Assembly: GCA_035463475.1 (NCBI GenBank)
Contig: DATHTE010000014.1
Coordinates: 2,750-66,749, forward strand
Length of the DNA: 64,000 bases
Origin: Vicinamibacterales bacterium
Lineage (GTDB): Bacteria > Acidobacteriota > Vicinamibacteria > Vicinamibacterales > 2-12-FULL-66-21
Direction of reading: 5' to 3'
Of the stretch, positions 1 through 18,063 are shown in pieces (within the stretch, counting starts at the first letter, position 1; each line of letters starts with the position of its first letter). A program made the translations under genes and the position numbers. The notes beneath the pieces were generated by a model. It did not search any database. It saw only the letters and a program-made list of their open reading frames with translations, and had not been told where the DNA came from.

Positions 1-384
1 GCCCAGGACCGCGATGGCGGCCTTCATCTGCGTTGGCCTCCACCGCGGGAGGGCCTTCGGCGCGGGAACCTCCGTCGCAACCGGGGCCATGAACTTGTAT
101 CCGCGCTGTGGCAGCGTTTGGACATACCGTGGAGTGCGCGCGTCATCTTCGAGAGCGATCCGTATTTGGCGAATGCAGTAGTTGAGGCCCTGGTCGAAGT
201 TGACCCACGAGTCCCGCCAGATTGCCGCGCGAAGTTCGTCGCGCCTCACGATTTCTCCCGCACGTGCGGTGAGTAACGCGAGGACGCGTGCAGGCTGCGA
301 TTGCAGCCGCACCTGCGCGAGGCCCCGCCGGAGTTGCCCCGAAACAGGGTCGAACGTGAACGGGCCAAAAGACACGGCAGTCAT
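1..384 (-). CDS. Winged-helix (OmpR/PhoB-type, CadC-like) DNA-binding regulator, N-terminal part; gene runs off the left edge
   Basis: Not in the ORF track because there is no stop in the window. A reverse-strand ATG at 384..382 opens MTAVSFGPFTFDPVSGQLRRG..LQSQPARVLALLTARAGEIVRRDELRAAIWRDSWVNFDQGLNYCIRQIRIALEDDARTPRYVQTLPQRGYKF. This is the typical trans_reg_C pattern. The frame stays open to nt 1. Confidence 0.65.
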   Translation of the reverse strand, partial: MTAVSFGPFTFDPVSGQLRRGLAQVRLQSQPARVLALLTARAGEIVRRDELRAAIWRDSWVNFDQGLNYCIRQIRIALEDDARTPRYVQTLPQRGYKFMAPVATEVPAPKALPRWRPTQMKAAIAVLG

Positions 385-610
385 AGCGACACAGACGGAC
401 GGCGTCGCAGGATGGTTCCGCTGGCCTGGTTTCCACACTTGGCTGGTTCAAACGGCAGGGTCGCGGATATCAGACGCGGATGAACCAGGTGCTGAGGCGG
501 TACATGGACGTCGTCGGCGGGCGAGGTCCCCAACGGACCGGCGCACGGCGAGGCGCTTCGGCGCGCAGGCGGGCGTCCGGGCGGGCGAGAGGAAGCTAGC
601 GAACAGCGGC

Positions 611-1051
611 TCACCCCGCGGCGGCCGCGCCTTCGTGACGAATCCACGTCCATCCCGGTCGTGTCAAACGGCTGTAAGCACCGATGACGTTCAGGGGAAC
701 GCATACTTCAGCAACGCGACGGCAGTACCACCCACCAAAGCCCTGGCCGCCGAAGGAGGAGACGATCACGATTTGGGTTGACTCGGATGTGCTCGGGTGG
801 TGCACTGTCAGCGCAATGGGATGATCGGAACCGCGGCGCGAGGCGGATTCCAGGAGCCAGCGCCCCGTGAAGTCTGTGCCTTCCTGCGCCAGTCCTGTGC
901 CAACCAGCACAAACCCGATCAACCCGGCTGCAATGCTTCGAGCTAAGAGAGTGCTCACGACACCTCTGGCGCCGGACTCGATTCGACGGTCTAACGGCCG
1001 CGGCTCACCCGCGGCGGCCGTATCTTTCTTCGCGAATCCGCTCGTTCTCAC
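611..1051 (-). CDS. Hypothetical small secreted protein (start uncertain)
   Basis: ORF with a hydrophobic signal-like segment, VVSTLLARSIAAGLIGFVLVGTGLAQEG. I recognise no family. It is flanked by a ~40-bp direct repeat. Confidence 0.3.
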   Translation of the reverse strand: MRTSGFAKKDTAAAGEPRPLDRRIESGARGVVSTLLARSIAAGLIGFVLVGTGLAQEGTDFTGRWLLESASRRGSDHPIALTVHHPSTSESTQIVIVSSFGGQGFGGWYCRRVAEVCVPLNVIGAYSRLTRPGWTWIRHEGAAAAG

Positions 1052-1129
1052 AATGGCCGCCGTCGGGTGCAGCCGCTCTTAGCCGGCCCGCCAACCGGCA
1101 GCCGTGAGCTTCCTAAGGTCCTTGAAATA

Positions 1130-1312
1130 CTACGTGTTCGGATCGAGCTCCGCCGGCGTGTCTCCTCGCTTAGTCAGCTCGTAGATATGCTCCGCCAATA
1201 CTGAGCCGATCGCGTGGACAGCGTCGTGCCGATTGAGCCCCTCCCGTTGGAGCCGTTCGAAAGTCTCAACAACGACAGGTTCCGCCGACGCGAAGCCGCG
1301 TGGCTCAGCGCA
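1130..1312 (-). pseudogene. Possible C-terminal remnant of a DUF1841-like gene
   Basis: The reverse frame reads ..EPVVVETFERLQREGLNRHDAVHAIGSVLAEHIYELTKRGDTPAELDPNT*, which looks protein-like. It is preceded by an in-frame TGA (1313..1315) and an implausible Arg-rich 22-codon leader. It lies next to a tRNA gene. Confidence 0.3.
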
Positions 1313-1565
1313 TCAGCTATGGGGATTGTAGCGCGGCCGGAGCAAGCGACGCGCTTGGCGGGGTGCAGGGGTCCCCCCCATTCAAGCAATGACGCGCCAC
1401 GAATTGTCAGTCACTTGTCCGTCAGCGCAGAGCTCTACTCAAAGCTGATTCCAAAACGACTGATTCTCCTTGAGACAGTGCCGCGCCCTGCCCGCCTTCG
1501 TTCATGGATCAAGCGAGCTTCGGCGCGCCTGGGCCTGTCGGTATGGGATCTGACGACGAGGTGGA

Positions 1566-1642
1566 TGGCGCGCCCTGCAAGACTCGAACTTGCGACCTCC
1601 TGGTTCGTAGCCAGACGCTCTATCCAACTGAGCTAAGGGCGC
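1566..1642 (-). tRNA. tRNA-Arg (anticodon ACG), CCA encoded
   Basis: The reverse complement is GCGCCCTTAGCTCAGTTGGATAGAGCGTCTGGCTACGAACCAGGAGGTCGCAAGTTCGAGTCTTGCAGGGCGCGCCA. It folds as a 7-bp acceptor stem, GCTC/GAGC D-stem, anticodon loop CUACGAA, T-arm GCAAG-TTCGAGT-CTTGC and a 3' CCA. Confidence 0.95.
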
Positions 1643-1788
1643 GCGGGCAGACACAGTCGGCCGGGTGGCCCCGGCCGCAAACAGTAATTATACCAAGAAG
1701 CAGCGACCCGCAGGCCGGGTCAGATACCAGAGGCTAGTTGCCAAGACGAGAACGCATCTCCTCACAGCGTGGGAACGCGTGTCAGCAT

Positions 1789-1857
1789 CCCTGACCCCTG
1801 AAGCCTGACCTGAACCTAACCTCTAGACCCCTCTAGACCCTGAACCCTGTGAACCCG
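1789..1857. repeat. Degenerate CCTGAAC/CCTGACC heptamer tract (same family as 23356..23380 and 24322..24492)
   Basis: The sequence is ccctgacccctgaagcctgacctgaacctaacctctagacccctctagaccctgaaccctgtgaaccc. It lies in the gap between the tRNA and the GH3 gene. Confidence 0.6.
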
Positions 1858-1868
1858 GTCGCAGTCCG

Positions 1869-3707
1869 TTACCGCAGCAGTCCGTGGCCCACGGGGAACA
1901 GCTCCGGCAGCGCGATCGGCAGCCGCCCCCCGATCGGCGCGTCGCCGGCGAGCGCGCGCACAGCCGATGCCTCCGCCAGGTCGTAGAAGTCGTACGTCAG
2001 CAACACGGCGGGCAGCTCCTTGAGAAAGAGCGCGGTGTAAGGGTTGCCGAACATGACGGTGACGAACGGCCGCCCCGAGCGCTCCGACGACCGCGCGATG
2101 TCGCCGAGCAGCCGGACGACGGGTTGCGCGAGATCCATCCGGCCGGAGGCGGAGGCGGCGCGCACAAAGGTCGAAGCGATGACCGCGTCGAACCGAGGCG
2201 CCATCGCGCGCACCAGCTCCAGCTCCGCCGGCGTCGTCCGATCCGACAGCTCGATCGCGGTCACGTCCGGCCAGTGGTTGCGCAGCTCCGGGATGAACGT
2301 CCGGCTCGGCGCGGCGATGCGCCAGCCGGTGGGATAGTCGAGCGCCGAGAGGTACAGGATCGCCGCGTCTTTCGGCAGCCGCAGCGGCACGTGGTTGCGA
2401 TCGTCCTTCAGCAGCGTGATCGATCGCTGGCTGACCTCGCGCGCCACGGCCTGGTGCGCGCGCGCGCCGAGCGTCGTCGCGAGCGAGTCCAGGCTGACCG
2501 CCTTGTTCTTGTGCAGCCCGGCGCGCGCCTTCGCTTCGAGGATCCGCTTCACTGACGCGTCGATCTGCGCGACCGCAACCTGTCCCGTCTCCACCGCGGA
2601 CGTGATCCCCAGGATCGCCTGCTCGTCATCCGGCGAATGAAGGACGATGTCGTTGCCCGCCTTGACGGCGCGCGCCGCCGCCTCCGCGGGGGAATACAGC
2701 TTGGTCACCCCCGCCATTCCCATGGAGTCGGTGTAGATCAGCCCGTCGAAACCGAGCTGCTCGCGAAGCAGCGCCGTGACGATCGGCCGGCTGAGCGTGC
2801 CCGGCGTCCGCGGCGTGGGATCGAACGCGGGCACTTCGATGTGCGCGCTCATCACCGCCCCGCTGCCTGCGGCAATCACCGCGCGGAACGGCCGCAGCTC
2901 GAGCCGTTCGAGCTGCTCCCGGGGCTTCTGGATCACCGGCAGGCCGAGATGCGAGTCCACGTCCGTGTCCCCGTGCCCCGGGAAGTGCTTCAGGGTCGCG
3001 AGGACGCCGGCCGACTGAAGCCCCCTCACGTACGCGGAGGCGAGCTCGGCGACACGATCCGGATCCTCGCCGAACGACCGCGTGTTGATCACCGGGTTTC
3101 GCGGGTTGTTGTTGACGTCCACCACCGGCGCGAAGTTGACGTGCACGCCGATCGCGCGCGCCTCGACCGCCGTGATCCGCCCCGCCTCGTGCGCGAGCTT
3201 CTCGTCGCCGGCGGCGCCGAACGCCATCGCGCGCGGAAACGCCGTCGCGCCGGAGATCCGGAAGCCGACCCCCGCCTCGAAGTCCGCCGTGTTCAGCAGC
3301 GGCACGGGCGAAATCGCCTGCAGCCGGTTCAGCAGCGAAGCGGCCTCGAGCGGCTGCCCGAGGATGACGCTCCCGTAGGTGGGGTTGAGCAAGACGGAGG
3401 GCACCGGCTCTGATCCGCCGAAAACGTGGAAGCCGCCGACGCGGTGCGTCGAAACCAGCCGCGCCAGCCGGTCGTATTCGTCGCTGTCGCTCGGGACGAA
3501 CGTGGACTGGAAGGACGGGACCACCATCTGGCCGATCTTCTCGTCCAGCGTCATCTTCTTGAGCGTGGCATCCACCCATCTCCGGGCCTCGCGATCGAGC
3601 TGGGGCGGACCGGAGGAAGAGGATGAGGGTGCTGGCGACGATTGAGCTGCCAGGAGCGCGACGGACGCGATGATCGCGAGGATCGCGGTATGAATGCGTG
3701 CCGGCAT
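1869..3707 (-). CDS. Glycoside hydrolase family 3 beta-N-acetylhexosaminidase (NagZ-like), secreted
   Basis: 612-aa ORF with an N-terminal signal peptide. It shows the GH3 N-domain motifs KIGQMVVPSF, NPRNPVINTRSFGEDP and KHFPGHGDTDVDSH. Confidence 0.85.
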   Translation of the reverse strand: MPARIHTAILAIIASVALLAAQSSPAPSSSSSGPPQLDREARRWVDATLKKMTLDEKIGQMVVPSFQSTFVPSDSDEYDRLARLVSTHRVGGFHVFGGSEPVPSVLLNPTYGSVILGQPLEAASLLNRLQAISPVPLLNTADFEAGVGFRISGATAFPRAMAFGAAGDEKLAHEAGRITAVEARAIGVHVNFAPVVDVNNNPRNPVINTRSFGEDPDRVAELASAYVRGLQSAGVLATLKHFPGHGDTDVDSHLGLPVIQKPREQLERLELRPFRAVIAAGSGAVMSAHIEVPAFDPTPRTPGTLSRPIVTALLREQLGFDGLIYTDSMGMAGVTKLYSPAEAAARAVKAGNDIVLHSPDDEQAILGITSAVETGQVAVAQIDASVKRILEAKARAGLHKNKAVSLDSLATTLGARAHQAVAREVSQRSITLLKDDRNHVPLRLPKDAAILYLSALDYPTGWRIAAPSRTFIPELRNHWPDVTAIELSDRTTPAELELVRAMAPRFDAVIASTFVRAASASGRMDLAQPVVRLLGDIARSSERSGRPFVTVMFGNPYTALFLKELPAVLLTYDFYDLAEASAVRALAGDAPIGGRLPIALPELFPVGHGLLR

Positions 3708-3776
3708 GCCGCGATCGTAGCAGAACCGCTCGGGAGACCATTGCTCCCGGCGGTGTTCTACGGTTTAATCCCTCGA

Positions 3777-4280
3777 ATGAGCGTCGAGGAGCACAAGCGC
3801 TCGGCCCCCGTCAGCGTGCGCGCGTTCGTGCTGACGGTGAGCGATACGCGGGACGAGCGAACGGATACCAGCGGCGCGGCCATCGTCCGGCTGCTCGAAC
3901 AGGCCGGCCACACCGTCGTCGGCCGGCAGATTGCGCGTGATGACCCGGCCGATGTTCAGCGGATTGTCCGTCACCAGCTCGCGGAGCCCGACGCGCAGAT
4001 CCTCATCACGACCGGCGGCACCGGCATCGCGTCACGCGATACGACGTACGAAGCGCTGGCGGCACTCCTGCAGAAGCGGATCGATGGCTTCGGTGAACTC
4101 TTCCGCATGCTGAGTTACGACGAGATCGGATCGGCGGCGATGCTGAGCCGCGCGTGCGCCGGCGTGGCCGGCGGCAAGATTCTGTTCGTGCTGCCCGGGT
4201 CCGAGCATGCCGTGCAACTCGCGCTCACCAAGTTGATCCTGCCCGAGCTCGGGCACCTGCTGCGCGAGGTTTCGCGATGA
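3777..4280 (+). CDS. moaB: Molybdenum cofactor biosynthesis protein B (MoaB/MogA family)
   Basis: MSVEEHK..VLTVSDTRDERTDTSG..ILITTGGTGIASRDTTYEA..LPGSEHAV matches the MoCF_biosynth domain. I chose the internal ATG at 3777. The stop overlaps the moeA start (ATGA). Confidence 0.8.
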   Translation: MSVEEHKRSAPVSVRAFVLTVSDTRDERTDTSGAAIVRLLEQAGHTVVGRQIARDDPADVQRIVRHQLAEPDAQILITTGGTGIASRDTTYEALAALLQKRIDGFGELFRMLSYDEIGSAAMLSRACAGVAGGKILFVLPGSEHAVQLALTKLILPELGHLLREVSR

Positions 4281-5518
4281 CCTCTGTCCCTCACGGCAGC
4301 ATGCGCCCGATCCGCGACACCGTGCCACTCGAGGAAGCGCTCGCCCTGGCGCTCGCTGCCGCCGCCCCGGTGACGCGCATCGAAGCGGTGCCGCTCGACC
4401 AGTCCGATGGCCGCGTGCTGGCGCGGGACCTGATGGCGCCGATCGACGTCCCCTCCTTCGACCGGGCCGCGATGGACGGCTTCGCGGTCGTCGCGGAGGA
4501 CACGTTTGGCGCCGGCCGGTTCGAGCCGAAGGTGCTGCGGTGCGTGGAGAAGGTGTTCACGGGCCAGGTCGCGGCGCGGCGGGTCACCCGCGGCGAGTGC
4601 ATCGAGATAGCCACCGGCGCCCCGATGCCCGCGGGCGCCGACGCCGTGGTGATGGTGGAGGAGACGGAGCGCTCCGGAGTAGACGTGCGCGTGCTCACGC
4701 CCGTGTACCCCGGCCAGAACGTCGGGCGCCGCGCGGCCGATATCAAGCGAGGGCACCTGGTCCTCCGCGCCGGCACCGTGCTGAACCCGGGCGGCGTCGG
4801 CGCCGCCGCGGCGGTGGGCCTCGCCGCGATCGAGGTCTTCGCGCGTCCCAGCGTTGCGCTGCTCTCTACCGGCAACGAGATCGTCGAGCCGGGCGCGCCG
4901 CTCGCGCTGGGACAGATCTACGACATCAACCGATTCACGCTCGCGGCGATTGTGCGGCGGCATGGCGGCGAGCCGGTGGCTCAACCGCTCGCGTCCGATG
5001 CGGTGCCGGACCTGAATGCCGCCATCGATGCGGCGCTGGACTCGGACCTGATCGTGTTCTCCGGCGGCAGCTCCGTCGGCGAGCGCGATCTGATCCTCGA
5101 CGTGTTGCGCGCGCGCGGAGAAGTGGTGTTCCACGGGATCGCCGTCAAACCCGGAAAGCCCACCGTCTTCGGCCGAATCGCGACGCCGCGCGGAGACACG
5201 CCGGTCCTCGGCATGCCGGGGAACCCGACCTCCTGTCTGTCGAACGCGTACATGCTGCTCGTCCCGATGCTGCGACGCATGGCGCAGTTGCCGCCGCACG
5301 ATCCGCAAACGGTGCGCCTGCCTCTGGCGCGACGCATCGTGTCCACGACCGGGCGCCACCAGTTCTACACCGTGCGTATCGCCGACGGCGCGGCGCACCC
5401 GGCGTTCAAGGCGTCAGGAGACATCACCAGCATGGCGGACGCCGACGGCTACATCGAGATTCCCGCGCAGACCGACCTCGTCGAGGCGGGCGAAATCGTG
5501 ACCGTGAAGCTGTTTTGA
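4277..5518 (+). CDS. moeA: Molybdopterin molybdenumtransferase MoeA
   Basis: ~413 aa with the MoeA N, MoCF and C-domain pattern (DVPSFDRAAMDGFAV, SGGSSVGERD, GMPGNPTS). It is translationally coupled to moaB. Confidence 0.9.
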   Translation: MTSVPHGSMRPIRDTVPLEEALALALAAAAPVTRIEAVPLDQSDGRVLARDLMAPIDVPSFDRAAMDGFAVVAEDTFGAGRFEPKVLRCVEKVFTGQVAARRVTRGECIEIATGAPMPAGADAVVMVEETERSGVDVRVLTPVYPGQNVGRRAADIKRGHLVLRAGTVLNPGGVGAAAAVGLAAIEVFARPSVALLSTGNEIVEPGAPLALGQIYDINRFTLAAIVRRHGGEPVAQPLASDAVPDLNAAIDAALDSDLIVFSGGSSVGERDLILDVLRARGEVVFHGIAVKPGKPTVFGRIATPRGDTPVLGMPGNPTSCLSNAYMLLVPMLRRMAQLPPHDPQTVRLPLARRIVSTTGRHQFYTVRIADGAAHPAFKASGDITSMADADGYIEIPAQTDLVEAGEIVTVKLF

Positions 5519-5557
5519 CGAGCTGGGGTCAGGTCTGAAACACCCGTCTTATGGTGC

Positions 5558-6121
5558 ATGAACGGACATCGTTCTGACGCGATGTCCTCTAGAGTCGCAA
5601 AGATGGCCGATTCGAGACCTGACCCCAAGGCGGCGCCCAAGGCGCCGCCGTTCGCTCTCCCGGACACGCGCGGCATCGTGCACACGCTCGAGGAGTTCCT
5701 GAGGCGCGGCCCGCTGCTGCTCGCCTTTCACCGAGGCACCTGGTGACCGAACTGCCGCCGCCGGTTCGGCGAGCTCGCGCAGAACAGTACGCAATATCTC
5801 GAACGCGGCTATGCCACGGTCGCCATCGTCGCGCAGAAATCAGAGGCCGTGCAGCGTTACCTGGAATCGACCCGGCTGCCGTTCCGCGTGCTCGTAGATG
5901 CGGACCGGGACGTCGCGAAGGCGTACGGCGTCTGGCACCGGATCGGCTTCGACGCGTGGAACATCGCGCGCCCGGCGCTGTTCCTGATCGCTCCCGACGG
6001 CTCGATTGAAAAGAAGTTCGTGGCCCGGAGGCAGGACGAGTTTCCGAGCCACGAGGAGATCCTGGACTGGATAGAGAAGGAACGGGGTCAGACCCCATTA
6101 CGGATTCGTCATGGGGACTGA
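5558..6121 (+). CDS. PRX_like2/AhpC-TSA family thiol peroxidase-like protein with in-frame UGA (candidate selenocysteine) at 5744..5746
   Basis: Track ORFs 5558..5746 and 5849..6121 share a frame (offset 291 = 97x3). The only interruption between them is the TGA. Read-through gives LLLAFHRGTW-[UGA]-PNCRRRFGEL..VAIVAQKSEAVQRYLESTRLPFRVLVDADRDVAKAYGV..ALFLIAPDG. The start may instead be the ATG at 5603. Confidence 0.7.
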
Positions 6122-6127
6122 CCCCAT
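6081..6127. repeat. REP-like twin hairpin (GGGGTCAGACCCC / ATGGGGACTGACCCCAT)
   Basis: The sequence is aacggggtcagaccccatt-N11-atggggactgaccccat. It covers the last 13 codons and the stop of the Prx-like gene, in the convergent gap with the SOD gene. Confidence 0.7.
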
Positions 6128-6144
6128 TCACGTCTCACCTGCGC

Positions 6145-6747
6145 CTACCTCCCGAACCGCTTGCTGACCGCGTCCCAGTTGACCACGTTCCACCACGCAG
6201 CGCAGTAGTCGGCCCGGCGGTTCTGGTACTTCAGGTAGTACGCGTGTTCCCACACGTCCAGGCCCATGATGGGCCTGCGTCCCTCCATCATCGGATTGTC
6301 CTGGTTCGCCGTGCTCTCGATCGACAGCTTGCCGCCCGAGTCCACCAGCCACGCCCACCCGCTGCCGAACCGCGCGAGCGCTGCCTTGTTGAACTGGTCC
6401 TTGAACGCGTCGAAGCTGCCGAACGTGGACGCGATCGCATCCGCGAGCGCGCCCTTCGGAGCGCCGCCGGCCTTCGGCCCCATGATCTCCCAGAACATCG
6501 TGTGGTTGGCGTGGCCGCCGCCGTTGTTGCGCACCGCCGTCCTGATGTCCTCCGGCACCGAGTTGATGCCGCGCAGCAGCTCGTCGATCGCCTTTCCCTG
6601 GAACTGCGGATGCTTCTCGAGCGCCGCGTTGAGGTTGGTCACGTACGTGCCGTGGTGCTTGTCGTGGTGGATCCGCATCGTCTGTTCGTCGATGTGCGGC
6701 TCGAGGGCGTTGGGGGCGTACGGAAGTGGAGGCAACTCAAACGCCAA
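6145..6747 (-). CDS. Fe/Mn-family superoxide dismutase
   Basis: The [31 protein letters not shown] and DVWEHAYYL signatures are present. I chose the TTG start at 6747..6745, which is preceded by AAAGGAG with an 8-nt spacer. The longer track ORF has an implausible N-terminus. Confidence 0.9.
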
Positions 6748-6769
6748 TGCAGGGGCTCCTTTCGCTACG

Positions 6770-6787
6770 GCAGGGCTGAAGCCCTGC
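6770..6787. terminator. GC hairpin GCAGGGC-TGAA-GCCCTGC between nadA 3' end and the SOD start
   Basis: Perfect 7-bp stem with a tetraloop and no U-tract. It could be the nadA terminator or a 5'-UTR structure of the SOD gene. Confidence 0.35.
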
Positions 6788-6823
6788 GACTCACGACCGT
6801 AAAGGCAAGGCCAAGGCCCTGCG

Positions 6824-7984
6824 CTACATGCGGGGTTTGATTTCAAGCATCCGATCGAGGGCGAGCTTCGCGAGCGATCTCGTCGGCTCCGGCACGACGA
6901 TCTCGTTGTGCACCCTGCCATCGATCAGGCCTTCGAGCACCCACAGGAGGTGGTTGGGGGAAACCCGGAACATCGTCGAGCACAGACAGCCGAACGGGTC
7001 GAGCGTCTCCACCGATTTCCCGGGCGCGACCTCTCTCGCCAGACGGTGCACCAGATGGATCTCCGTTCCGACTGCCCACACCGACCCCGCAGGGCTGTCC
7101 TTCACCGCCCTGACGATGTACTCCGTGGAACCGCTTTCGTCCGCAGCCTGCACCACGTCCCACGTGCACTCCGGATGGACGATGACGCGGCCGTTCGGAT
7201 GCTTGCGGCGGAACGCCTCGACCTGCTTCACGGTGAACCGCGTGTGAACGGAGCAGTGCCCCTTCCACAGCATCAGGCGCGCCGCGGCGAGGTCTTTCGG
7301 CTCGAGACCCCCCCAGATCTCGGCCGGGTCCCACACGACCATCTGCGCGAGCGGCACCCCCATCTTGTACGCGGTGTTGCGGCCGAGGTGCTGGTCGGGA
7401 AGCATGAGCACTTTGTCGCCGCGCTCCCACGCCCACTTCATCACGTCGGCCGCGTTGGTGGACGTACAGACCACGCCACCGTGCTCGCCGCAGAACGCCT
7501 TGATGCCCGCGCTCGAGTTGATGTACGTCACGGGCACGACGCCTGCGCGATCGACTCCCATCTCCGCCAGCTCGCGCCAGCACATGTCGAGCTGATCGGG
7601 AGCGGCCATGTCGGCCATGGAACACCCGGCGGCAAGATCCGGAAGAATGACGCGCTGGGCCGGAGGGCTGAGGATATCGGCGCTCTCCGCCATGAAATGG
7701 ACGCCGCAGAAGACGATGAACTCGGCGCGCGCGCGGGTGGCGGCGGCGTGGGCGAGCTTGAGGGAGTCCCCCGTGAAGTCGGCGAACTTGATCACCTCGT
7801 CGCGCTGGTAGTGATGGCCGAGAATCACCAGCCGCGAACCGAGCTCCGCCTTGGCCGCCGCGATGCGGCGGTCCATCTCGGCATCCGAAAGGCCGAGGTA
7901 CACCGCCGGGAGCGGCTGGCGCTCCGCAATGCGTTCCTTCTCGTACTCGGTCAGCAGCGTGAGATCCATCTCGATGGCCGGCAT
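6824..7984 (-). CDS. nadA: Quinolinate synthase NadA
   Basis: 386 aa. Three-repeat NadA architecture with [23 protein letters not shown] and VIVHPEC. Confidence 0.9.
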
Positions 7985-7999
7985 AGGTGGCCGGACCTT

Positions 8000-9145
8000 C
8001 TATTGTAGCGCGGTGGCGTCGGGCTGGGGAAAACGCGGCATCTGAACGTGCGGCTCAGCCACGACGTTATACAGGGTGTCGCGCTCGATCGGCTCGCGGC
8101 CGGCGCGGGAGATGAGGCGGCGGATGTCGCCGGTGGACAGCGCCTCGGGCGTCCGCGCCCCGGCCATGTGATAAATGCGCTCTTCCTGCACCGTGCCGTC
8201 CAGGTCGTCCACGCCGAACCACAGCGAGGCCTGCGCGACGTCGATGCCCGTGGCGATCCAGAACGCCTTGACGTGCGGGATGTTGTCGCACACCAGCCGC
8301 GCGACGGCGTGCACGCGGAGCGTGTCGGACGCCGGAGGGGGCGGCAGCTTGCGCATCTGGTTGTTGTCGGGATGGAACGCGAGCGGGATGAACGCCTGGA
8401 AGCCGCCCGTCTCGTCCTGCAGGGCGCGCGCGCGGAGCATGTGATCGACCCGCTCCGCCATCGTCTCGATGTGGCCGTACAGCATGGTCACGTTCGAGCG
8501 CATGCCGAGGCGGTGCGCCAGCCGGTGGATGGCGAGATAGCGGTCCGCGTCGCACTTGTCGTGGCAGATCTTCTTGCGCACGCGCTCGGCGAACACCTCG
8601 GCGCCCCCGCCCGGAAGCGAGTCCAGCCCCGCTTCCATCAGCTCGCGGAGCACCTGCTCGTCGGACATGCCGAACAGATCCGCGAAGAACGCGATCTCGA
8701 CCGCCGTAAAACACTTCAGATGGATGTCCGGACGGATGCGCTTGAACCCGCGGAGCAGCTCCTTGTAGTAGTCGAACGGCAGGTCCGGATGGAGTCCGTT
8801 GACGATGTGGATCTCCGTGAGCGGCTGGTCGGCGCGGACGCGCAACTTCTGCCACGCCTGTTCGAGGCTCATGGTGTAGGCGTGCTCGTCGCCCGGCTTC
8901 AGCCGCGCGAACGAGCAGAACAGGCAGCTCGCGACGCAGACGTTGGTCGCCTCGATCCGGATGTTGTAGTTGTAGTAGGTGCGCGCGCCGTGCAGGCGCT
9001 CGCGCTCCCGGTTGGCCAGCCAGCCGACGGCCAGCAGGTCAGGACACTCGAACAGCCTGACGCCGTCCTCGAGCGTCAGCCGCTCGCGCGAGCCGAGCTT
9101 CCCGGCGATGTCGAGGAGACCGGCGGACGTGAGACGGCTACGCAA
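8000..9145 (-). CDS. mqnE: Radical-SAM menaquinone (futalosine pathway) enzyme, MqnE/MqnC family, probably aminofutalosine synthase
   Basis: It has the CxxxCxxC motif NVCVASCLFCSFARLKPGDEHAYTM and a CofH-like layout. The MqnE versus MqnC assignment comes from memory of family motifs only. Confidence 0.6.
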   Translation of the reverse strand: MRSRLTSAGLLDIAGKLGSRERLTLEDGVRLFECPDLLAVGWLANRERERLHGARTYYNYNIRIEATNVCVASCLFCSFARLKPGDEHAYTMSLEQAWQKLRVRADQPLTEIHIVNGLHPDLPFDYYKELLRGFKRIRPDIHLKCFTAVEIAFFADLFGMSDEQVLRELMEAGLDSLPGGGAEVFAERVRKKICHDKCDADRYLAIHRLAHRLGMRSNVTMLYGHIETMAERVDHMLRARALQDETGGFQAFIPLAFHPDNNQMRKLPPPPASDTLRVHAVARLVCDNIPHVKAFWIATGIDVAQASLWFGVDDLDGTVQEERIYHMAGARTPEALSTGDIRRLISRAGREPIERDTLYNVVAEPHVQMPRFPQPDATALQ

Positions 9146-9644
9146 GGCCCATGACCTGCACGCGCAGCGTTCGCGCGCGCGGCCCGTCGAGTTCCGCCAT
9201 CAGCACGCGCTGCCACTGTCCGAGCACCACCTCGCCCGCGGTGACCTGCAGCGTGAGGCTGTGCCCCAGCAGCAGCGCGCGCAGGTGCGCATCCGCGTTC
9301 TTGCGGTCGCAGTCGGAGTGCTGCGGGTCATTGTGCAGCCACTCGGCATCGTGCGCCACGAGGCCGGCGATGTACTGCTTCATGTCCGAGAGGAGCGCCC
9401 GCTGGAACTCGTTGACGAAGACGGCGCAGGTCGTGTGCATCGCCCAGACGTGCACGATGCCCTCCCGGACGCCGGCGCGGCGCACGATCGACATGACGCG
9501 CTCGGTGAGATCCGTCAGCTCGATCCGCTCCCGCGTCTCGACGGCCACCGTTTCACTGTGGATCCTCAGACCGCTGGCGGACGCTGCGACGTCGCTGATG
9601 GGCGTCGACCGCACGGTAGACGCGGAAGACCTGCTCATGAGCAC
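9138..9644 (-). CDS. YjbQ/UPF0047 family protein (secondary thiamine-phosphate synthase-like)
   Basis: IELTDLTERV..GIVHVWAMHTTCAVFVNE..DAHLRALLLGHSLTLQV..GEVVLGQWQRV. The N-terminal ~25 aa may not be translated. Confidence 0.75.
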   Translation of the reverse strand: MLMSRSSASTVRSTPISDVAASASGLRIHSETVAVETRERIELTDLTERVMSIVRRAGVREGIVHVWAMHTTCAVFVNEFQRALLSDMKQYIAGLVAHDAEWLHNDPQHSDCDRKNADAHLRALLLGHSLTLQVTAGEVVLGQWQRVLMAELDGPRARTLRVQVMGLA

Positions 9645-9699
9645 CCCACGGTCGGGCGCGGAACCACCGGCCCGACCTCTGATTCTGCCATGCTATACT

Positions 9700-9900
9700 C
9701 CGGCTGACAACTGAACCGGCTTCCGCCCCGCGGCCACGCGAAGTGGGTGCAAACCCCACACGGTGCCGCCACTGTGAGCGGTCGAGCGGCCTCCACGCGC
9801 GGTCCTCCCGGATCGCGCAGCCACTGTGCGCGCTGGCGCATGGGAAGGCGGAGAGGCCGCAGAGTCCGCAAGTCAGGATACCTGGCCGACGGGGCGCTTC
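9700..9900 (+). promoter_or_regulatory. Cobalamin (B12) riboswitch in the 5' leader of the TonB-dependent receptor
   Basis: The conserved core gaaGTGGGTGCAAACCCCACacGGTGCCGCCACTGTgAGCGG lies at 9741..9782. A B12 box AAGTCAGGATACCTGGCC lies at 9870..9887. A possible anti-SD segment sits upstream of the GAAGGAGG RBS. The outer boundaries are approximate. Confidence 0.75.
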
Positions 9901-9935
9901 TTGATCGGCGCGAGATCACGCCGAAGGAGGCGCAC

Positions 9936-12197
9936 GTGCTTCGCTCGGTCTCCACGACATTCAGCCTCGTCGTTCTTGCTGTCCTGCTGTCACATCCGCT
10001 CCCGGCGCGCGCGCAATCTGCCGCGTTCGGCGGCGCCCTCCGCGGCGCCGTGATCGATCCTGATGGCCGGCCCGTTCCGGGCGCGGAGGTCCTGGTCACC
10101 GCGCGCGCCGCGGTCGTGGCGCGCGCGACAACCGACGAGTCGGGGGCGTTTGCGGTGACGGACCTGCCGCCGGATCGATACGAGATCCGTGTCGCGCGCG
10201 ACGGGTTCCGCGCGGAACCGGTCGCGTTGGACCTTGCGGTCGGCGACAGCAGGACGCTGACGCTCCGCCTGCAGGTCAGCGCCATCAGCGAAGTCGTCGT
10301 CGTCTCCGCGGCGCAGGTCGATCTGCCGCTGTCGAGGACGCCGGCGGCGACCACCGTCATCCCGCGGGTGGAACTTCGAGCCTTGCAGCAGAACACGATC
10401 GCGGCGGCGCTCCGCCGCGTGCCCGGGATCAGCATCGCCCGAAACGGCGGCGAAGGGTCCGTCACGAGCCTGTTCTCGCGCGGGGGCGAATCCGATTTCA
10501 CGGCGGTCCTTATCGACGACGTGCCGGTGAACGCGTTCGGGGGCGGTTTCGATTTCGGCCATCTCACGACCGGCGACGTGGAGCGCGTCGAGGTGGTGCG
10601 CGGCCCGCAGAGCGCGCTTTGGAGCGGCGGCGCGATCGGCGGCACCATCCAGATCGTGACGCGCAAGGACGCAGGGCGCGCGCTCGACGCGTCCGCCGAA
10701 GCAGGGTCCCGCGCGTTTCGACGACTGTCGGCGTCGGCGGGCCTGCCCGCGGGCGAGTGGCGCGTTTCGCTCGGCGGGGAACGCTCCTCGTCTCGCGGTT
10801 TTACCGGGCCGAGTGCCGCGGGCGAGCCGGTGGCCAATGACGACTGGCGCTCCGAGCACCTGAGCGCCGGCCTTACGCGCGGCGGCGCCACCCGCGTCAC
10901 CGTTTCGTCACGCCTGGAGCGGAGCGAGCGCGGGAACCCGGGCCCGTTCGGGTCCGACCCCGGAGGCACCTACGGCGGCGTGGATCGCGTCTCGCGCGGC
11001 ACGAACCGCTCGCTGCTGCTTGGCGGCTCGGTCTCCCGCGCGTTCGGACGCGTGCGGCCTGGCGGTCGGATCTCCTGGTTCCGCCTCGAGAGCGACTACG
11101 CGAGCCCGTTCGGAGCGTCGGACCTGACCTCGCACCGGCTGATCGCGCGCGGACATGCGGACCTCCGGCTCACGCGACGGATCGACGCGACCGCCGGCGC
11201 GGAGTGGCTGCACGAGCAGGCGACGAGCACCTACATCACCGGAGCCAGTGGAACGCCGGTACCGGTCCGGCGCAGCGTGGCCTCGGCGTTTGGCGAGGCG
11301 CGTGTTGAAGCGGGAAACGCGTTTCTCACCGCCGGATTGCGCGCGGAAGCGATCCACCGCGCGACGCTGGATGCCGACCCGAACGCCTTCTCGCCGCGCC
11401 CCGTGCTTCCGGCAAACACCGAGCTTGCAGTCACTCCGCGGCTCTCGGCGTCGTGGTTCGTGCGTCCCGGGAACGCCCGCGGCGAGTGGACCCGCATCCG
11501 CGCGAGCGCCGGGCTGGGCATCCGGCCGCCGGATGTGTTCGAGCTGGCGTTCACCGACAATCCGGGCCTCGCGCCGGAGCGCACCACGAGCCTCGAGGCG
11601 GGAGTCGAGCACGCGATTGCCGGCGGCCGGCTCGTCGCCGAAGCCACGGCGTTCCTGAACCGGTACGACGACCTCATCGTCGCCATCGGGCGATCGCTGA
11701 GCGACGTGAGCCGCTACCAGAGCGACAATGTGTCCAACGCGCGCTCGCGAGGCATCGAGGCGCTGGTTGCCGCGCGCACGCGCCACGGCTTCCGCGCGTC
11801 GGCGGCGTACACGCTCCTCGATGCAGAAGTGCTGGCGGTGGACCGCCTCGGCGTCGCGCCTCCGCCGTTCGTTCCCGGGGACTCGCTGCTCCGGCGCCCG
11901 CGTCACCAGTTCTGGGCCGATGCGAGCTGGACGGGATCGAAGGCGAGCGCCTTCCTCTCGCTCGGCGCGCGCGGACGTACGCTCGACGTCGATCCGAGCG
12001 CGGGCGCGTTCGGAGGACTGTTCACGAACAGCGGGTACGCGTCCGCCGACGCTGGCGTCGCGTGGCGGGTGACGCCGGTCCTGGAGATCTTCGGCCGCGT
12101 GACAAACCTTGCTGACCGGAGGTACGAGGAGGTGCTGGGCTTCCCGGCCGCGGGCCGCAGTGCGTACGCAGGCGTGCGCATCGCGGCCCGCCGGTAA
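9936..12197 (+). CDS. TonB-dependent outer-membrane receptor (corrinoid uptake inferred from the riboswitch), with N-terminal carboxypeptidase-regulatory-like domain
   Basis: GTG start at 9936, 6 nt after GAAGGAGG. The signal peptide is MLRSVSTTFSLVVLAVLLSHPLPARAQS. Plug motifs (NTIAAALRRVPGISI, VEVVRGPQSALWG) are followed by a long beta-barrel. Confidence 0.85.
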   Translation: MLRSVSTTFSLVVLAVLLSHPLPARAQSAAFGGALRGAVIDPDGRPVPGAEVLVTARAAVVARATTDESGAFAVTDLPPDRYEIRVARDGFRAEPVALDLAVGDSRTLTLRLQVSAISEVVVVSAAQVDLPLSRTPAATTVIPRVELRALQQNTIAAALRRVPGISIARNGGEGSVTSLFSRGGESDFTAVLIDDVPVNAFGGGFDFGHLTTGDVERVEVVRGPQSALWSGGAIGGTIQIVTRKDAGRALDASAEAGSRAFRRLSASAGLPAGEWRVSLGGERSSSRGFTGPSAAGEPVANDDWRSEHLSAGLTRGGATRVTVSSRLERSERGNPGPFGSDPGGTYGGVDRVSRGTNRSLLLGGSVSRAFGRVRPGGRISWFRLESDYASPFGASDLTSHRLIARGHADLRLTRRIDATAGAEWLHEQATSTYITGASGTPVPVRRSVASAFGEARVEAGNAFLTAGLRAEAIHRATLDADPNAFSPRPVLPANTELAVTPRLSASWFVRPGNARGEWTRIRASAGLGIRPPDVFELAFTDNPGLAPERTTSLEAGVEHAIAGGRLVAEATAFLNRYDDLIVAIGRSLSDVSRYQSDNVSNARSRGIEALVAARTRHGFRASAAYTLLDAEVLAVDRLGVAPPPFVPGDSLLRRPRHQFWADASWTGSKASAFLSLGARGRTLDVDPSAGAFGGLFTNSGYASADAGVAWRVTPVLEIFGRVTNLADRRYEEVLGFPAAGRSAYAGVRIAARR

Positions 12198-12229
12198 TCC
12201 CGAACGGGATCGGCGGGGATCCTCCATCC

Positions 12230-13042
12230 ATGCTTCGAGCCGACGACGTGTCGTTCGCCTACGAGCGCGGCACCCCTGTTCTACGGGGTGTCTCGTTCGC
12301 TGCGGCGCCGAGCGAGATCGTCGGCATCCTCGGGCCGAACGGCTCCGGAAAGACGACGCTGCTCAAGGTGCTCGCGCGGCTGCTGCCGCCGCAGTCCGGC
12401 CGCGTGACGCTGGACGGCCGCCCGCTGTCGGACGTGGGCCGGCGCGCGATTGCACGACGCATGAGCGTCGTGGCCCAGGAAACGCACCTGGCGTTCGACT
12501 ACTCGGTGCTCGAGGTCGTGCTCATGGGGCGTTACGCGCATCTGGGCGCCTTCGAGCTCGAAGGACCGGACGACTTCGCGGCCGCCCGCGCGGCGCTCGC
12601 CATCACGGGCACCGCGCAGTTCGAGCGGCGGCCGTTCAGCTCGCTGAGCGGCGGCGAGAAGCAGCGCGTGGTGATCGCGTCCGCGCTGGCGCAGCTCGAT
12701 CGGCCGCCCGAGGAGGAGGCTGGCGCCTCGTACCTGCTGCTCGACGAGCCCACGGCGTCCCTGGATCTCGGCTTTCAGCTGGACGTTCTCGGGCTGCTGC
12801 GAAAGCTGCACGCCGATCGTCAGCTCGGCATCGTCGTGTCGATTCACGATCTGAATCTGGCGGCGGGGTTGTGCGACCGCCTGGTGCTCTTGCGGGAGGG
12901 GCGTGTGCTGGCGGACGGTCCCACCCGAGACGTGCTGACACCGGACCACATCCGCGCGCTCTATGGCGTCGAGGCGGAGGTGCTGCCGCACGACGCCGCC
13001 GGTCATCCGGTGATCGTGCCGCTGAAGAGGACTGCGACGTGA
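12230..13042 (+). CDS. ABC transporter ATP-binding protein (FecE/BtuD-type)
   Basis: Walker A GPNGSGKTT, signature LSGGEKQR and Walker B LLLDEPT. Confidence 0.9.
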   Translation: MLRADDVSFAYERGTPVLRGVSFAAAPSEIVGILGPNGSGKTTLLKVLARLLPPQSGRVTLDGRPLSDVGRRAIARRMSVVAQETHLAFDYSVLEVVLMGRYAHLGAFELEGPDDFAAARAALAITGTAQFERRPFSSLSGGEKQRVVIASALAQLDRPPEEEAGASYLLLDEPTASLDLGFQLDVLGLLRKLHADRQLGIVVSIHDLNLAAGLCDRLVLLREGRVLADGPTRDVLTPDHIRALYGVEAEVLPHDAAGHPVIVPLKRTAT

Positions 13043-14040
13043 ACCGGGGCAGGCTGCTGCGGATCGTCGTGCTGTTCGGCGTGCCGGCGCTGCTCGTCTG
13101 GCTCATTGCGCCCACGCTGGGGTCGGTGCGGGTGAGCATTCTCCGGGCGCTCGACACGTCCATTCCCTTCGATCGCAACGTGGACGCGCAGATCCTGTTC
13201 GTCGCACGGCTGCCGCGCACGGTCGCCGGGATCGTGGTGGGTGCGGCGCTCGCCGCCGCCGGCGTCGTCTTCCAGGGTTTGCTCCGGAATCCGCTCGCGA
13301 CTCCGTACACGCTCGGCGTGTCGGCCGGTGCAGCGCTGGGCGCGATGCTGGCGATCACGCTTCGCTGGACCATCGCGGCGGGCCCGTACTCGGCAGTGCC
13401 GCTCGCAGCCTTCGCCGGGTCGCTCGCCGCCGTGATGGTCGTCTACGGGCTCGCGACGATGCGCGCGCGACGCGCGCTGTCCACGCACGTGCTGCTGCTG
13501 GCCGGCGTCACGCTCAACTCGTTCTTCTCGGCGCTGATCCTCTGCGTGCAGTACTTCGCGAGCTTTGCCGACGCGTTCAGAGCGATCCGGTGGCTCATGG
13601 GCGACCTGGACATCAGCAGCTACAGGCCGATCGGGGCGGCGCTCCCGCTGCTGGCCGTGGCAGGCATCGCGTTCGCGTGGCTGCCGCGCGCGCTGAACGT
13701 GCTGACGTTCGGCGCCGAGGCGGCCGAAGCGCGCGGCATCGACGTGACCCGCGCGCAGCGCGTCGCCTTCTTCAGCGCCTCGATGGCGACAGGCGCCGCC
13801 GTTTCCATCGGCGGGCCGATCGGGTTCGTCGGCATCATCGTGCCCCACCTCGTGCGGCTGCTGGTCGGCTCCGATCACCGGGCGGTGCTGATCGCGTCAG
13901 TACTGTTCGGCGGCGCGTTCCTGGTCGCGTGCGACACCATCGCGCGCACCGTTCTGGCGCCGATCGAGCTGCCGGTGGGGGTCGTGACGGCGTTAATCGG
14001 AGGGCCTTTCTTCCTGTGGCTGCTCATCGCGAGGCGCTGA
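13039..14040 (+). CDS. FecCD/BtuC-family ABC permease
   Basis: The GTG start overlaps the ATPase stop (GTGA). The protein is multi-pass hydrophobic with GAALAAAGVVFQGLLRNPLATPYTLGVSAGA. The track ORF 12109..14040 is a 5'-over-extension. Confidence 0.85.
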   Translation: MNRGRLLRIVVLFGVPALLVWLIAPTLGSVRVSILRALDTSIPFDRNVDAQILFVARLPRTVAGIVVGAALAAAGVVFQGLLRNPLATPYTLGVSAGAALGAMLAITLRWTIAAGPYSAVPLAAFAGSLAAVMVVYGLATMRARRALSTHVLLLAGVTLNSFFSALILCVQYFASFADAFRAIRWLMGDLDISSYRPIGAALPLLAVAGIAFAWLPRALNVLTFGAEAAEARGIDVTRAQRVAFFSASMATGAAVSIGGPIGFVGIIVPHLVRLLVGSDHRAVLIASVLFGGAFLVACDTIARTVLAPIELPVGVVTALIGGPFFLWLLIARR

Positions 14041-14924
14041 TGAGGCGAATCACCGTGGCGGCCATGCTGGCCTCATGGGGCCTGTCACCAATTGTCCTCA
14101 TAACCGGACAATTGGTGACAGGCCCCGTCAAGCGCATCGTCTCGCTCGTACCGAACGTCACCGAAATACTCTTCGAAATCGGCGCCGGAGATCGGGTCGT
14201 GGGGGTCAGCAGCTTCGACACGTATCCGCCGGAGGTCCAGCGCCTCGCGCGCGTCGGCGGCCTGCTCGATCCCGACCTCGAGCGAGTGTTCGAGCTGCGC
14301 CCGGACCTGGTCGTCATCTACGCGTCGCAGGTGGAGCTTGCGCAGCAGCTCGCCCGCGCGGGGATATCAACCTACGTGTATCGCCACGGCGGGGTGGCGG
14401 ACGTTGTCGCGGCAATGCGCGAGCTGGGCACCATGCTGGGCATCGCCCCTCGCGCGGTGGAGGCGGCGCGCGAGCTGGAGCGGCGGCTCGAGGCGGTCCG
14501 TGCCAGCGTGCGCGGCAAGCCGCGGCCGCGCGTGCTGCTGGTGTTCGGGCGCGAGCCGGGCACGCTCCGCGCGGTTCACGCGAGCGGCGGGGTCGGCTTC
14601 CTGCACGACCTCGTCGAAATCGCGGGCGGACAGGACGTGTTCGCGGACATCGAGCGGGAATCAGTGCAGGCGTCCACCGAGCTGATCCTGGCGAGGGCGC
14701 CAGACGTGATCATCGAGGTGCACGCCGAGGGTCTCCTGAGCGACGAGACCGTCGCGCGCGAACGCGACGTCTGGCTGGCGTTGCCCGCCGTTCCGGCGGT
14801 GCGAAACGGCCGCGTTCACGTGCTCTCGGGGCAGGAGCTGGTCGTCCCCGGACCGCGGCTCGCCGTCGCCGCGGAACGAATCGCGGCGGCGATTCACGCC
14901 CCGGGGCGCAAGCGAGCGCGCTGA
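14040..14924 (+). CDS. Periplasmic substrate-binding protein (BtuF/FhuD-like, cluster A)
   Basis: The ATG overlaps the permease stop (TGATG). Signal peptide, then RIVSLVPNVTEILFEIGAGDRVVGVS and RPDLVVIY. Confidence 0.8.
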   Translation: MRRITVAAMLASWGLSPIVLITGQLVTGPVKRIVSLVPNVTEILFEIGAGDRVVGVSSFDTYPPEVQRLARVGGLLDPDLERVFELRPDLVVIYASQVELAQQLARAGISTYVYRHGGVADVVAAMRELGTMLGIAPRAVEAARELERRLEAVRASVRGKPRPRVLLVFGREPGTLRAVHASGGVGFLHDLVEIAGGQDVFADIERESVQASTELILARAPDVIIEVHAEGLLSDETVARERDVWLALPAVPAVRNGRVHVLSGQELVVPGPRLAVAAERIAAAIHAPGRKRAR

Positions 14925-15088
14925 GGCAGGGCGAAATCGCGGGACACCAAGACGCACAGGCGCGGAGAGAAAAGGCCAACTCGCCCGCGCGTTCGCGCCG
15001 CCAGGGCGTCGTCCTCTGTGCGTCTCTGCGTCCTCTGCTCTGCGGTGGCGTTTGTTCTCCGCGACCTCGCCAGCCGTCTCCACGGCCT

Positions 15089-15913: not shown

Positions 15914-15916
15914 GCG

Positions 15917-16363
15917 CTAATGTCTGTCGTTGTTCTTGTTCTTTTCCATCGCCCACTTGATCAGCGCGGCGACGGCGCCGGGGATGTCCGCCGCGGGCGC
16001 GCGGAACTCCTGGGGCGTGACGACCGAGAGGAACTCCTGGTGGGTCATGCCGCCGTACCTGACCGGCGCGCTCGTCACGTTCTCGCCTTCGACGAACAGC
16101 TCGAGACGCGGCGCCTGCCCGTACACGTTGATGTAGTACTCGAGGCGCAGCCTGTCCTTCGACTGTCGTGCCGCGGGCTGGGCGGCGAGCCGGCGTCGAA
16201 TGCGCGTGAGCGACACCGGAAGCTCGTCACGCTGATCGCTTCCGCCTGCCAGCGCGCGGCTGCGCGCCGAGGCTGTTTCCGTCTCCTGCGACGGCTGCGC
16301 GAAACTCGCCTGTGGCGCCGCGAGCGCGGAGACGAAAACGAGGCAGACGAGGCTGTGCACCAT
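15917..16363 (-). CDS. Hypothetical secreted protein
   Basis: Start taken at MVHSLVCLVFVSALAAPQASFA (signal peptide), directly after the stop of the upstream desulfurase gene. I recognise no family. Confidence 0.45.
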   Translation of the reverse strand: MVHSLVCLVFVSALAAPQASFAQPSQETETASARSRALAGGSDQRDELPVSLTRIRRRLAAQPAARQSKDRLRLEYYINVYGQAPRLELFVEGENVTSAPVRYGGMTHQEFLSVVTPQEFRAPAADIPGAVAALIKWAMEKNKNNDRH

Positions 16364-16364
16364 C

Positions 16365-17528: not shown

Positions 17529-17606
17529 GACGTAATGTTTCAGTTTACTTGACGGGGAGCGTCATGCGAAGGCCGAAGGCCGGATGCACAAGGCCGAATG
17601 GGAGCC

Positions 17607-18011: not shown

Positions 18012-18063
18012 GCGTTAAGTCGGCATGGCAGGCCTGAAGGCCCGCGCTACACGTCTCCGCACG

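Follow-up and report, generated by a model that had tools for sequence, protein, structure and literature searches.

Selenoproteins of the AhpC/TSA type with a UxxC motif have been known since 2004-2008. They are listed as "Prx-like thiol:disulfide oxidoreductases" both in a 2006 survey (PMC1794560) and in a 2026 review (PMC13188914), the latter giving WP_010940744.1 as the reference sequence of the Prx-like class (PF00578, UxxC/UxxU), and the GOS survey includes a "Prx-like 1, pfam00578, UxxC" family with 225 members. An earlier note on the DNA studied here had likewise named UxxC peroxiredoxin-like proteins as a known class of bacterial selenoproteins. Table 1 of the review also contains a "Redoxin family protein" selenoprotein (PF08534, UxxC), represented by HEU0032618.1, a GenBank protein from a metagenome-assembled genome (MAG) (PMC13188914).

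The gene described here lies at positions 5603-6121 of the window, by which we mean the whole 64-kb stretch of DNA that was analysed. Comparative sequence evidence indicates that it is very probably a genuine selenoprotein gene, with selenocysteine (Sec) at the UGA at 5744-5746. It resembles the Prx-like class in its AhpC/TSA domain, in the placement of the putative Sec as the first residue of UxxC at the nucleophilic Cys, in the existence of many Cys homologues, and in a candidate selenocysteine insertion sequence (SECIS) within the coding sequence just 3' of the UGA. It differs in that its subfamily has the motif HRGTW-U-PNC, is concentrated in soil Vicinamibacterales and Acidobacteriota, and has a conserved MoeA-Prx-SodA neighbourhood. 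Assigned by domain and motif, the gene would be a new member of the UxxC Prx-like selenoprotein class, and the group to which it belongs is possibly a distinct Acidobacteriota subfamily of that class. The "Redoxin family" selenoprotein has the same type of motif, and the window protein matches PF08534 too; the two families may be identical.

Gene structure and annotation

Positions 5558-6121 of the window translate in a single frame into 188 codons, in which the only internal stop is the TGA at 5744-5746 and the terminal stop is the TGA at 6119-6121. The earlier note had reported that two open reading frame pieces, 5558-5746 and 5849-6121, share a frame and that this TGA is the sole stop between them, and re-translation agrees on both points. 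The start codon is likely ATG 5603 (MADSRPD...), the same start as that of the fragment predicted by the ENA gene caller. The features of the gene, all on the forward strand, are as follows.

5603-6121, forward strand: full recoded coding sequence of the Prx-like selenoprotein candidate, 172 codons including Sec48, plus the stop TGA at 6119-6121
5744-5746, forward strand: UGA codon, residue 48, at the nucleophilic (peroxidatic) Cys position according to alignment with the Cys of HRGTW-C-PNC
5753-5755, forward strand: TGC codon for Cys51, the partner (resolving) Cys of U-P-N-C, an invariant column in the alignment with Cys homologues
5969-5971, forward strand: codon for Arg123 in the invariant WNIARP motif, an invariant column that aligns with ...KRAVFIV of Aeropyrum pernix BCP

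The window was compared over 17,984 nt with contig k141_70883 of an independent ENA assembly (ERZ27272645). The two differ by 7 mismatches (99.96% identity), and the gene is identical in both, TGA included. On the nearly identical contig, the ENA gene caller split the gene into products of 47 and 90 amino acids, as the earlier note had predicted that gene callers would. The Pfam AhpC-TSA match falls on the 90-residue piece only and not on the 47-residue piece. The GC3 coding signature persists 3' of the UGA (0.81), where 124 codons are open.

Within its family the window protein is divergent: no homologue exceeds 68% identity to it, and both of its termini overlap inserted palindromic repeats. 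A reassignment of UGA in the genetic code is ruled out, because TGA serves as an ordinary stop in 22 of the 40 Pfam-supported genes of the window, including the gene at 5603-6121 itself. A scan of the window for other coding-looking in-frame TGAs returned only adjacent genes in the same frame and antisense frames; the scan was insensitive, as it missed the known site at 5744.

Protein family, fold and predicted chemistry

Profile searches of the 172-residue protein were run with Cys put at the TGA position. The protein matches the Pfam families AhpC-TSA (PF00578; 85.9 bits against a cut-off of 26, E = 2.8e-24) and Redoxin (PF08534; 68.7 bits against a cut-off of 26.6, E = 6e-19). The best-scoring NCBIfam model is the SelL-related redox protein NF040769, yet the score of 53 bits lies below the NCBI cut-off of 120, and the protein is not assigned to that family. 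The label given in the earlier note was PRX_like2. A protein search recovered 326 homologues, of which the best 120, each full-length at about 150-170 residues, are 56-68% identical to the window protein and contain GTWCPNC without exception. Precomputed matches to PF08534 and PF00578 are attached to the homologues as well.

Aligned with 24 full-length Cys homologues, the window gene has its TGA at the first Cys of an otherwise invariant H-R-G-T-W-C-P-N-C, that is, in a nearly invariant Cys column, exactly where the earlier note had placed it. Every position that is invariant in the 24 Cys homologues is also kept in the window sequence. Cys51 is present in every TGA-form homologue, a count to be read with the fact that this residue was part of the search pattern.

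By sequence, the nearest solved structure is A. pernix BCP/PrxQ (E = 1.8e-14), followed by Bacillus ResA (E = 4e-12); the ResA/TlpA-type structures (PDB 1SU9 and 1ST9) give E-values of 4e-12 to 1e-10. Residue 48 occupies the column of the peroxidatic Cys in A. pernix BCP and of the leading Cys in the ResA motif GTW-C-P-H-C. An AlphaFold model adopts a thioredoxin fold (mean pLDDT 74, pTM 0.73), in which residue 48 is found in the loop between the strand 38-43 and the helix 50-60, at the N-terminus of helix 1. The model puts the U-x-x-C motif, U48-P-N-C51, at the beginning of the first helix of the fold. Foldseek neighbours of the model are ResA, at the top, and PrxQ/BCP.

The window protein shares the GTW-C-P-x-C string and the fold with Bacillus subtilis ResA/TlpA-type CxxC oxidoreductases. 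ResA is a membrane-anchored extracytoplasmic cytochrome c maturation factor that uses Cys, whereas the window protein has a UGA-encoded residue at this position and, as its sequence reads, starts directly with the soluble domain. PrxQ/BCP (A. pernix BCP, PDB 2CX3 and 4GQF) is the best sequence match in the PDB, with residue 48 in the peroxidatic Cys column and R123 retained. It differs in that the partner Cys of the window protein is at +3, in a thioredoxin-like U-x-x-C, rather than at the BCP-type or distal resolving position. Compared with the typical peroxiredoxin site PxxxTxxC, the threonine (Thr46) is at -2 and not at -3, R123 is invariant, and the motif is the ResA-like GTW-U-P-x-C. Arg123 is likely the equivalent of the conserved peroxiredoxin active-site Arg.

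Knowledge of the fold suggests a catalytic scheme in which the selenolate would attack the substrate to give a selenenic acid, or a selenenylsulfide with Cys51, which would then be reduced by a thioredoxin-type partner. The enzyme is predicted to act as a peroxidase or as a thiol-disulfide reductase. The adjoining conserved SodA would fit an antioxidant role.

Conservation of the in-frame UGA

One genome per GTDB species was scanned with a DNA pattern encoding H-R-G-T-W-TGA-P-N-C. This exact motif scan identified at least 119 species-representative genomes with TGA at the catalytic codon, nearly all of them Vicinamibacterales, Vicinamibacteria or Acidobacteriota MAGs. The remainder are a few Rokuibacteriota, Polarisedimenticolaceae and Sulfotelmatobacter MAGs and a single locus with a Bifidobacteriaceae label. 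Past the TGA, all but two of the 119 listed loci have 94 or more open codons, usually 109-125, which encode the rest of the domain in conserved form. The other two have 27 and 33 open codons, and one of them ends at the edge of the fetched locus. The TGA-form sequences are phylogenetically related, and these counts do not represent independent events.

A homology scan of JGI soil metagenomes, which was unbiased toward TGA, yielded 77 best loci with the motif, of which 51 have TGA and 26 have TGC or TGT at the catalytic codon. In a collection of 5.8 billion proteins, the matches listed comprise Cys forms and one truncated 90-residue fragment of a Sec form, with no full-length Sec form among them.

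Two neighbours are conserved. MoeA, upstream of the gene, adjoins it at 106 of the 119 genome loci; among the metagenome loci, it does so for 44 of the 51 Sec forms and 23 of the 26 Cys forms. The corresponding counts for SodA in the neighbourhood are 85, 32 and 14. Because this MoeA/SodA neighbourhood is common to both, the Sec and Cys forms look like orthologues at one locus and not like paralogues.

A neighbour-joining tree was built from 171 TGA forms and 146 Cys forms. One clade holds 138 of the Cys forms, the TGA forms fill the rest, and the window gene nests in a clade of 17 that is entirely TGA. Given midpoint rooting and biased sampling, the tree is not taken to show a direction of change between Sec and Cys.

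A SECIS candidate restricted to Sec forms

Published criteria for bacterial SECIS (bSECIS) elements are an apical loop that starts with G followed by G or U, a spacing of 16-37 nt, and a minimum free energy (MFE) of -7.5 kcal/mol or lower (PMC13188914). A hairpin of this kind is found in 115 of 120 genome Sec forms and 51 of 51 metagenome Sec forms, versus 1 of 26 Cys forms.

The hairpin occurs in two registers, for which nucleotides are numbered from the U of the UGA. Most homologues use register B, GCCGGUUC-GGU-GAACUGGC, in which nt 17-24 pair with nt 28-35 around a GGU loop at nt 25-27. All eight pairs form in 92 of the 120 genome and 44 of the 51 metagenome Sec sequences, and in 0 of the 26 Cys-form orthologues. 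Mean hairpin energies are -11.6 kcal/mol in the genome and -11.9 kcal/mol in the metagenome Sec forms, versus -6.0 kcal/mol in the Cys forms. Codons uncommon in genomes of this kind hold the hairpin in place. The Gly codon in the hairpin is GGU in 78% of Sec forms, compared with 5.7% of Gly codons in window genes, and the Glu position is GAA in 123 Sec forms and GAG in 23 (84% GAA, against a 23% background). The Arg codon before it, when Arg is encoded, is almost always CGG in Sec forms. In Cys forms, the Glu position is GAG in 22 cases and GAA in 3 (Fisher p = 2e-12 for Sec versus Cys, uncorrected for relatedness), and Ala, Ser or Gly replaces the GGU glycine of the Sec forms. The hairpin is under RNA-level selection in Sec forms only.

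In register C, the stem is formed by nt 14-20 and nt 24-30 around a GUU loop at nt 21-23, with coordinated changes in three codons. Where codon 10 is the Asp codon GAC, as it is in 16 sequences, codon 9 is always GGC and codon 5 the rare CGU, so that U15 pairs with A29 and G17 with C27. One further sequence has GCC at codon 10 together with GGC and, at codon 5, CGG, giving G15-C29. In a distant subfamily (...AQLR...), the hairpin is of another kind: its loop is AGUU and its stems are compensated. The elements of this family resemble the consensus bacterial SECIS (the bSECISearch model, with E. coli fdhF as prototype) in being stem-loops within the coding sequence 3' of the UGA and in loop start, spacing and MFE. 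They differ from it in that the upper stem is very short (5-8 bp), the loop has 3 nt, and two overlapping registers interchange by coordinated codon changes.

The window gene has a hairpin in register C. Three predicted structures, all on the forward strand, are relevant here.

5757-5774, forward strand: predicted bacterial SECIS upper stem-loop in register C, with 5757-5763 paired with 5767-5774, A5772 bulged, and the apical loop GUU at 5764-5766
5752-5782, forward strand: extended (lower) stem around the SECIS hairpin, a prediction only, with an MFE of -14.4 kcal/mol for the 48 nt after the UGA
5747-5769, forward strand: the hairpin CCGAAC...GUUCGG of the earlier note, a competing structure whose 3' arm is common with the SECIS hairpin, -9.8 kcal/mol

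The hairpin at 5757-5774 has an energy of -10.4 kcal/mol with the bulged A, or 5 bp and -7.6 kcal/mol without the bulge. The UGA lies 17 nt from the loop and 10 nt from the base of the stem, the latter distance being close to the 11-nt spacing required by the minimal fdhF element of E. coli. The element falls within the published bSECIS ranges only narrowly. It is among the weaker variants, in a minority class of nine sequences with CGC, GGC and GAG codons. Shuffled versions of the 48 nt that follow the UGA fold as well as the native sequence (z = +0.16), a result that was not used as evidence, as single-sequence folding statistics are uninformative in GC-rich DNA. An Rfam search of 5700-5850 at a permissive threshold returned no match to a SECIS family, its sole match being a spurious miRNA. 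With unremarkable single-sequence folding and no matching Rfam family, the SECIS assignment is based on the contrast between Sec and Cys forms and on covariation.

The hairpin at 5747-5769 was rejected as the SECIS in favour of the overlapping downstream hairpin. By itself, its fold does not exceed chance (z = -2.0, with 10 of 200 shuffles folding as well). Its pair 6:24 is intact in 72 of 120 Sec-form homologues, with no compensating change where it is lost, and its other pairs are fixed mainly by invariant codons. It also starts directly after the UGA, and a hairpin in that position would, judging from the ribosome footprint, be unwound with the UGA in the A site. It is probably not a functional element. 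The structure that the earlier note had described at this position therefore exists as a fold but is probably not the SECIS, the conserved, covarying hairpin being the one at 5757-5774. The caveat attached to that claim, that the loop lay nearer the UGA than in the classic fdhF-type element, was right, and the conserved hairpin sits a few bases downstream.

Selenocysteine machinery and use in the phylum

No tRNA-Sec, SelA, SelB or SelD was found in the 64-kb window by ARAGORN, Rfam and Pfam scans covering about 50 window ORFs. A 96-nt "tRNA-Gly(acc)" reported by ARAGORN at 44787-44882 was discarded as a false positive; it has no Rfam support at E <= 10 and reads like GC-rich coding sequence. 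Over 885 kb of related loci, ARAGORN detected only tRNA-Arg and one tRNA-Ser, and no tRNA-Sec. E. coli SelD and SelA were used as tblastn queries against the window and about 1.1 Mb of related loci; there was no match, a weak negative in that the query sequences were approximate.

Use of Sec in the phylum has been described before. Three selenoprotein families were assigned to Acidobacteria by Zhang et al. in 2006 (PMC1794560), Occallatibacter riparius is listed as Sec-utilising (PMC12013277), and Sec hydrogenases occur in Acidobacteriota MAGs (PMC13582414). In the literature on Sec in Vicinamibacter, Luteitalea and Vicinamibacterales, nothing specific was found.

Decoding of the UGA

The alternatives to Sec insertion all appear improbable, and the one that survives best, at perhaps a small fraction of the overall likelihood, is that the UGA is translated as a different amino acid. 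A selC*-type tRNACys(UCA), delivered via a SelB paralogue, or an acidobacterial allo-tRNA suppressor would insert Cys or Ser. Such selC* tRNACys species with a UCA anticodon, together with selB*, are found in delta-proteobacteria and other anaerobes, and allo-tRNAs, which are possible nonsense suppressors, occur in Acidobacteria; selC* itself, however, is not reported from Acidobacteria (PMC5389517). Sec and Cys at a SECIS-dependent UGA are indistinguishable from sequence data alone. Insertion of Cys would nevertheless have no clear advantage over the one-step change from TGA to TGY, which has been made in other lineages of the same orthologue, and the conserved SECIS-like hairpin suggests SelB-type delivery, the normal cargo of which is Sec.

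Marginally less credible again is a dead gene, in which a nonsense mutation or an assembly error struck the Cys codon and the two halves are decaying or the product is truncated. A single substitution suffices to turn TGC or TGT into TGA, the window copy is divergent, with its N- and C-terminal tails replaced by repeat-encoded sequence, and the window and the approximately 1.1 Mb of related loci contain no matches to Sec machinery. Yet the same TGA is present in the independent assembly and in more than 170 homologues, the 124 codons after it are open with all positions invariant among the Cys homologues kept, and the coding GC3 signature continues at 0.81 with a SECIS-type hairpin retained. 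The retention of the UGA at the catalytic position over wide divergence, combined with purifying selection downstream, argues that the gene is not a pseudogene and that the codon is translated.

Automatic annotation produces two small proteins, a 47-residue peptide that stops at the UGA and a 90-residue piece with its own start at GTG 5849, and the 90-residue C-terminal fragment is present in the protein database. This arrangement is nevertheless the least plausible of all. The stretch between the two pieces, 5747-5848, codes for strongly conserved sequence in which helix 1 and the partner Cys lie, a thioredoxin fold cut at its active site and missing its nucleophile would be non-functional, and the Cys-form orthologues have one continuous ORF.

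The core proposal of the earlier note, that the UGA is recoded as Sec at the catalytic Cys of an AhpC/TSA protein, is strongly supported by the conservation of the TGA, which is found in at least 119 genomes and in 51 loci from metagenomes, almost always with a long conserved frame behind it. The note also argued that a TGA exactly on the Cys is not expected of a random nonsense mutation. Alone, the coincidence is not beyond chance, TGY and TGA being one base apart, and it is the comparative conservation that goes beyond chance.

Under the preferred reading, recoding with Sec, 5603-6121 would encode one 172-residue thioredoxin-fold AhpC/TSA oxidoreductase with U48 of HRGTW-U-PNC as its nucleophile. 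The GC-rich stem-loop at 5757-5774, with its GUU loop and starting about 10 nt past the UGA, would recruit SelB-GTP-Sec-tRNASec, and Sec would be inserted at the UGA at 5744-5746 in place of termination, SelB dependence and selenium incorporation both being inferred.

Evolution and implications

Several aspects of this family were not found stated in the literature: the TGA majority among soil metagenome homologues, the pairs of Sec and Cys orthologues in one syntenic context, the two-register SECIS, and the absence of a full-length Sec form among the protein-collection matches listed. No new mechanism is involved, as both the recoding mechanism and the protein class are already known. The family does provide a clean natural experiment: across many species, orthologous Sec and Cys versions occupy the same genomic context, and only in the Sec versions can the SECIS hairpin be seen.

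Throughout Vicinamibacterales, Sec rather than Cys may be both ancestral and the majority state for this orthologous MoeA-linked gene, a reading put forward tentatively and as somewhat less likely than not. The Cys clade would then have arisen by reversal from Sec to Cys with loss of the SECIS, and the SECIS itself would evolve by register switching through coordinated synonymous and conservative codon changes.

Given the split annotation and the lack of a full-length Sec form among the protein matches listed, the gene is mis-annotated in such a way that the antioxidant capacity of Vicinamibacterales MAGs, and their dependence on selenium, are likely to be under-counted. Vicinamibacterales are abundant in soil. 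If Sec is indeed the ancestral and majority state, this protein would be among the most widespread, and systematically unannotated, selenoproteins of soil.

Palindromic repeats at the ends of the probable selenoprotein gene

Palindromic REP/MITE-like elements of one family, sharing the core GGGGTCAG(N)YC, are present in the window in seven copies where 0.29 would be expected. They lie at the following positions:

5520-5631, palindromic REP/MITE-like element
6076-6133, palindromic REP/MITE-like element
36222-36286, palindromic REP/MITE-like element
27129-27146, palindromic REP/MITE-like element

The copies are for the most part arranged as inverted pairs, and the resulting hairpins are very stable, at -53.4, -33.1 and -44.2 kcal/mol (z = -5.7 to -8.6). 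At each of its ends the selenoprotein gene runs into one of these elements. The start codon lies in one of them together with the first 8 codons; the final ~14 codons and the stop lie in the other. The stretches covered in this way coincide exactly with the protein's two terminal tails (N and C), which are unconserved among homologues. Related genomes carry the GGGGTCAG(N)YC motif much less often than the window does, at 13 per 1.1 Mb.

The selenoprotein gene is carried in identical form, TGA included, by a contig from a second public assembly, L001 (ENA ERZ27272645 k141_70883), which matches window positions 1-17984 at 99.96% identity with 7 mismatches. Beyond window position 1 this contig goes on for another 2.7 kb and enters a MacB/FtsX-type gene.

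Other loci in the window

Two further gene groups lie at the following positions:

9740-9880 (+), cobalamin riboswitch (56 bits, E = 2.6e-11)
17607-24271 and 24492-25667 (-), SUF Fe-S assembly cluster followed by a ThiF-rhodanese (MoeB-like) gene

The riboswitch lies directly 5' of a TonB-dependent receptor gene, which is followed by ABC-transporter genes encoding an ATPase, a FecCD permease and a periplasmic binding protein (9936-14924); together these constitute a typical B12 uptake operon. The SUF cluster encodes SufB/D, a class-V aminotransferase (possibly SufS), a FeS_assembly_P protein and an Rrf2 regulator. Both MoeB and BtuF are listed among the selenoprotein families in a 2026 review (PMC13188914). 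A scan for in-frame TGA codons flagged none in these genes, but its sensitivity was poor, since the TGA already known at 5744 escaped it as well.

ORFs with good coding signal and no Pfam match occupy 32928-36995 and 58887-60971, for example:

35336-35797, ORF without Pfam match
58887-60182, ORF without Pfam match
60183-60971, ORF without Pfam match

A 96-nt 'tRNA-Gly (acc)' called by ARAGORN at 44787-44882 (-) has no Rfam match even at E <= 10, and its sequence resembles GC-rich coding DNA. A false-positive call is the most likely explanation, not a tRNA-Sec-like gene.

Cys-form homologues

Several Cys-form homologues of the Prx-like protein (P0008, P0025, P0028 and others) bear the JGI name 'methyl-accepting chemotaxis protein'. 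The name seems to be a misannotation, because their precomputed Pfam matches are Redoxin and AhpC-TSA. Another Cys-form homologue, P0122 (NCBI, from an Acidobacteriota MAG), has CPNCRRRF-T-ELA, elsewhere the sequence type of Sec forms, and in it another codon stands in place of the loop-forming Gly codon of the SECIS. P0122 is a candidate for a recent Sec-to-Cys reversal.
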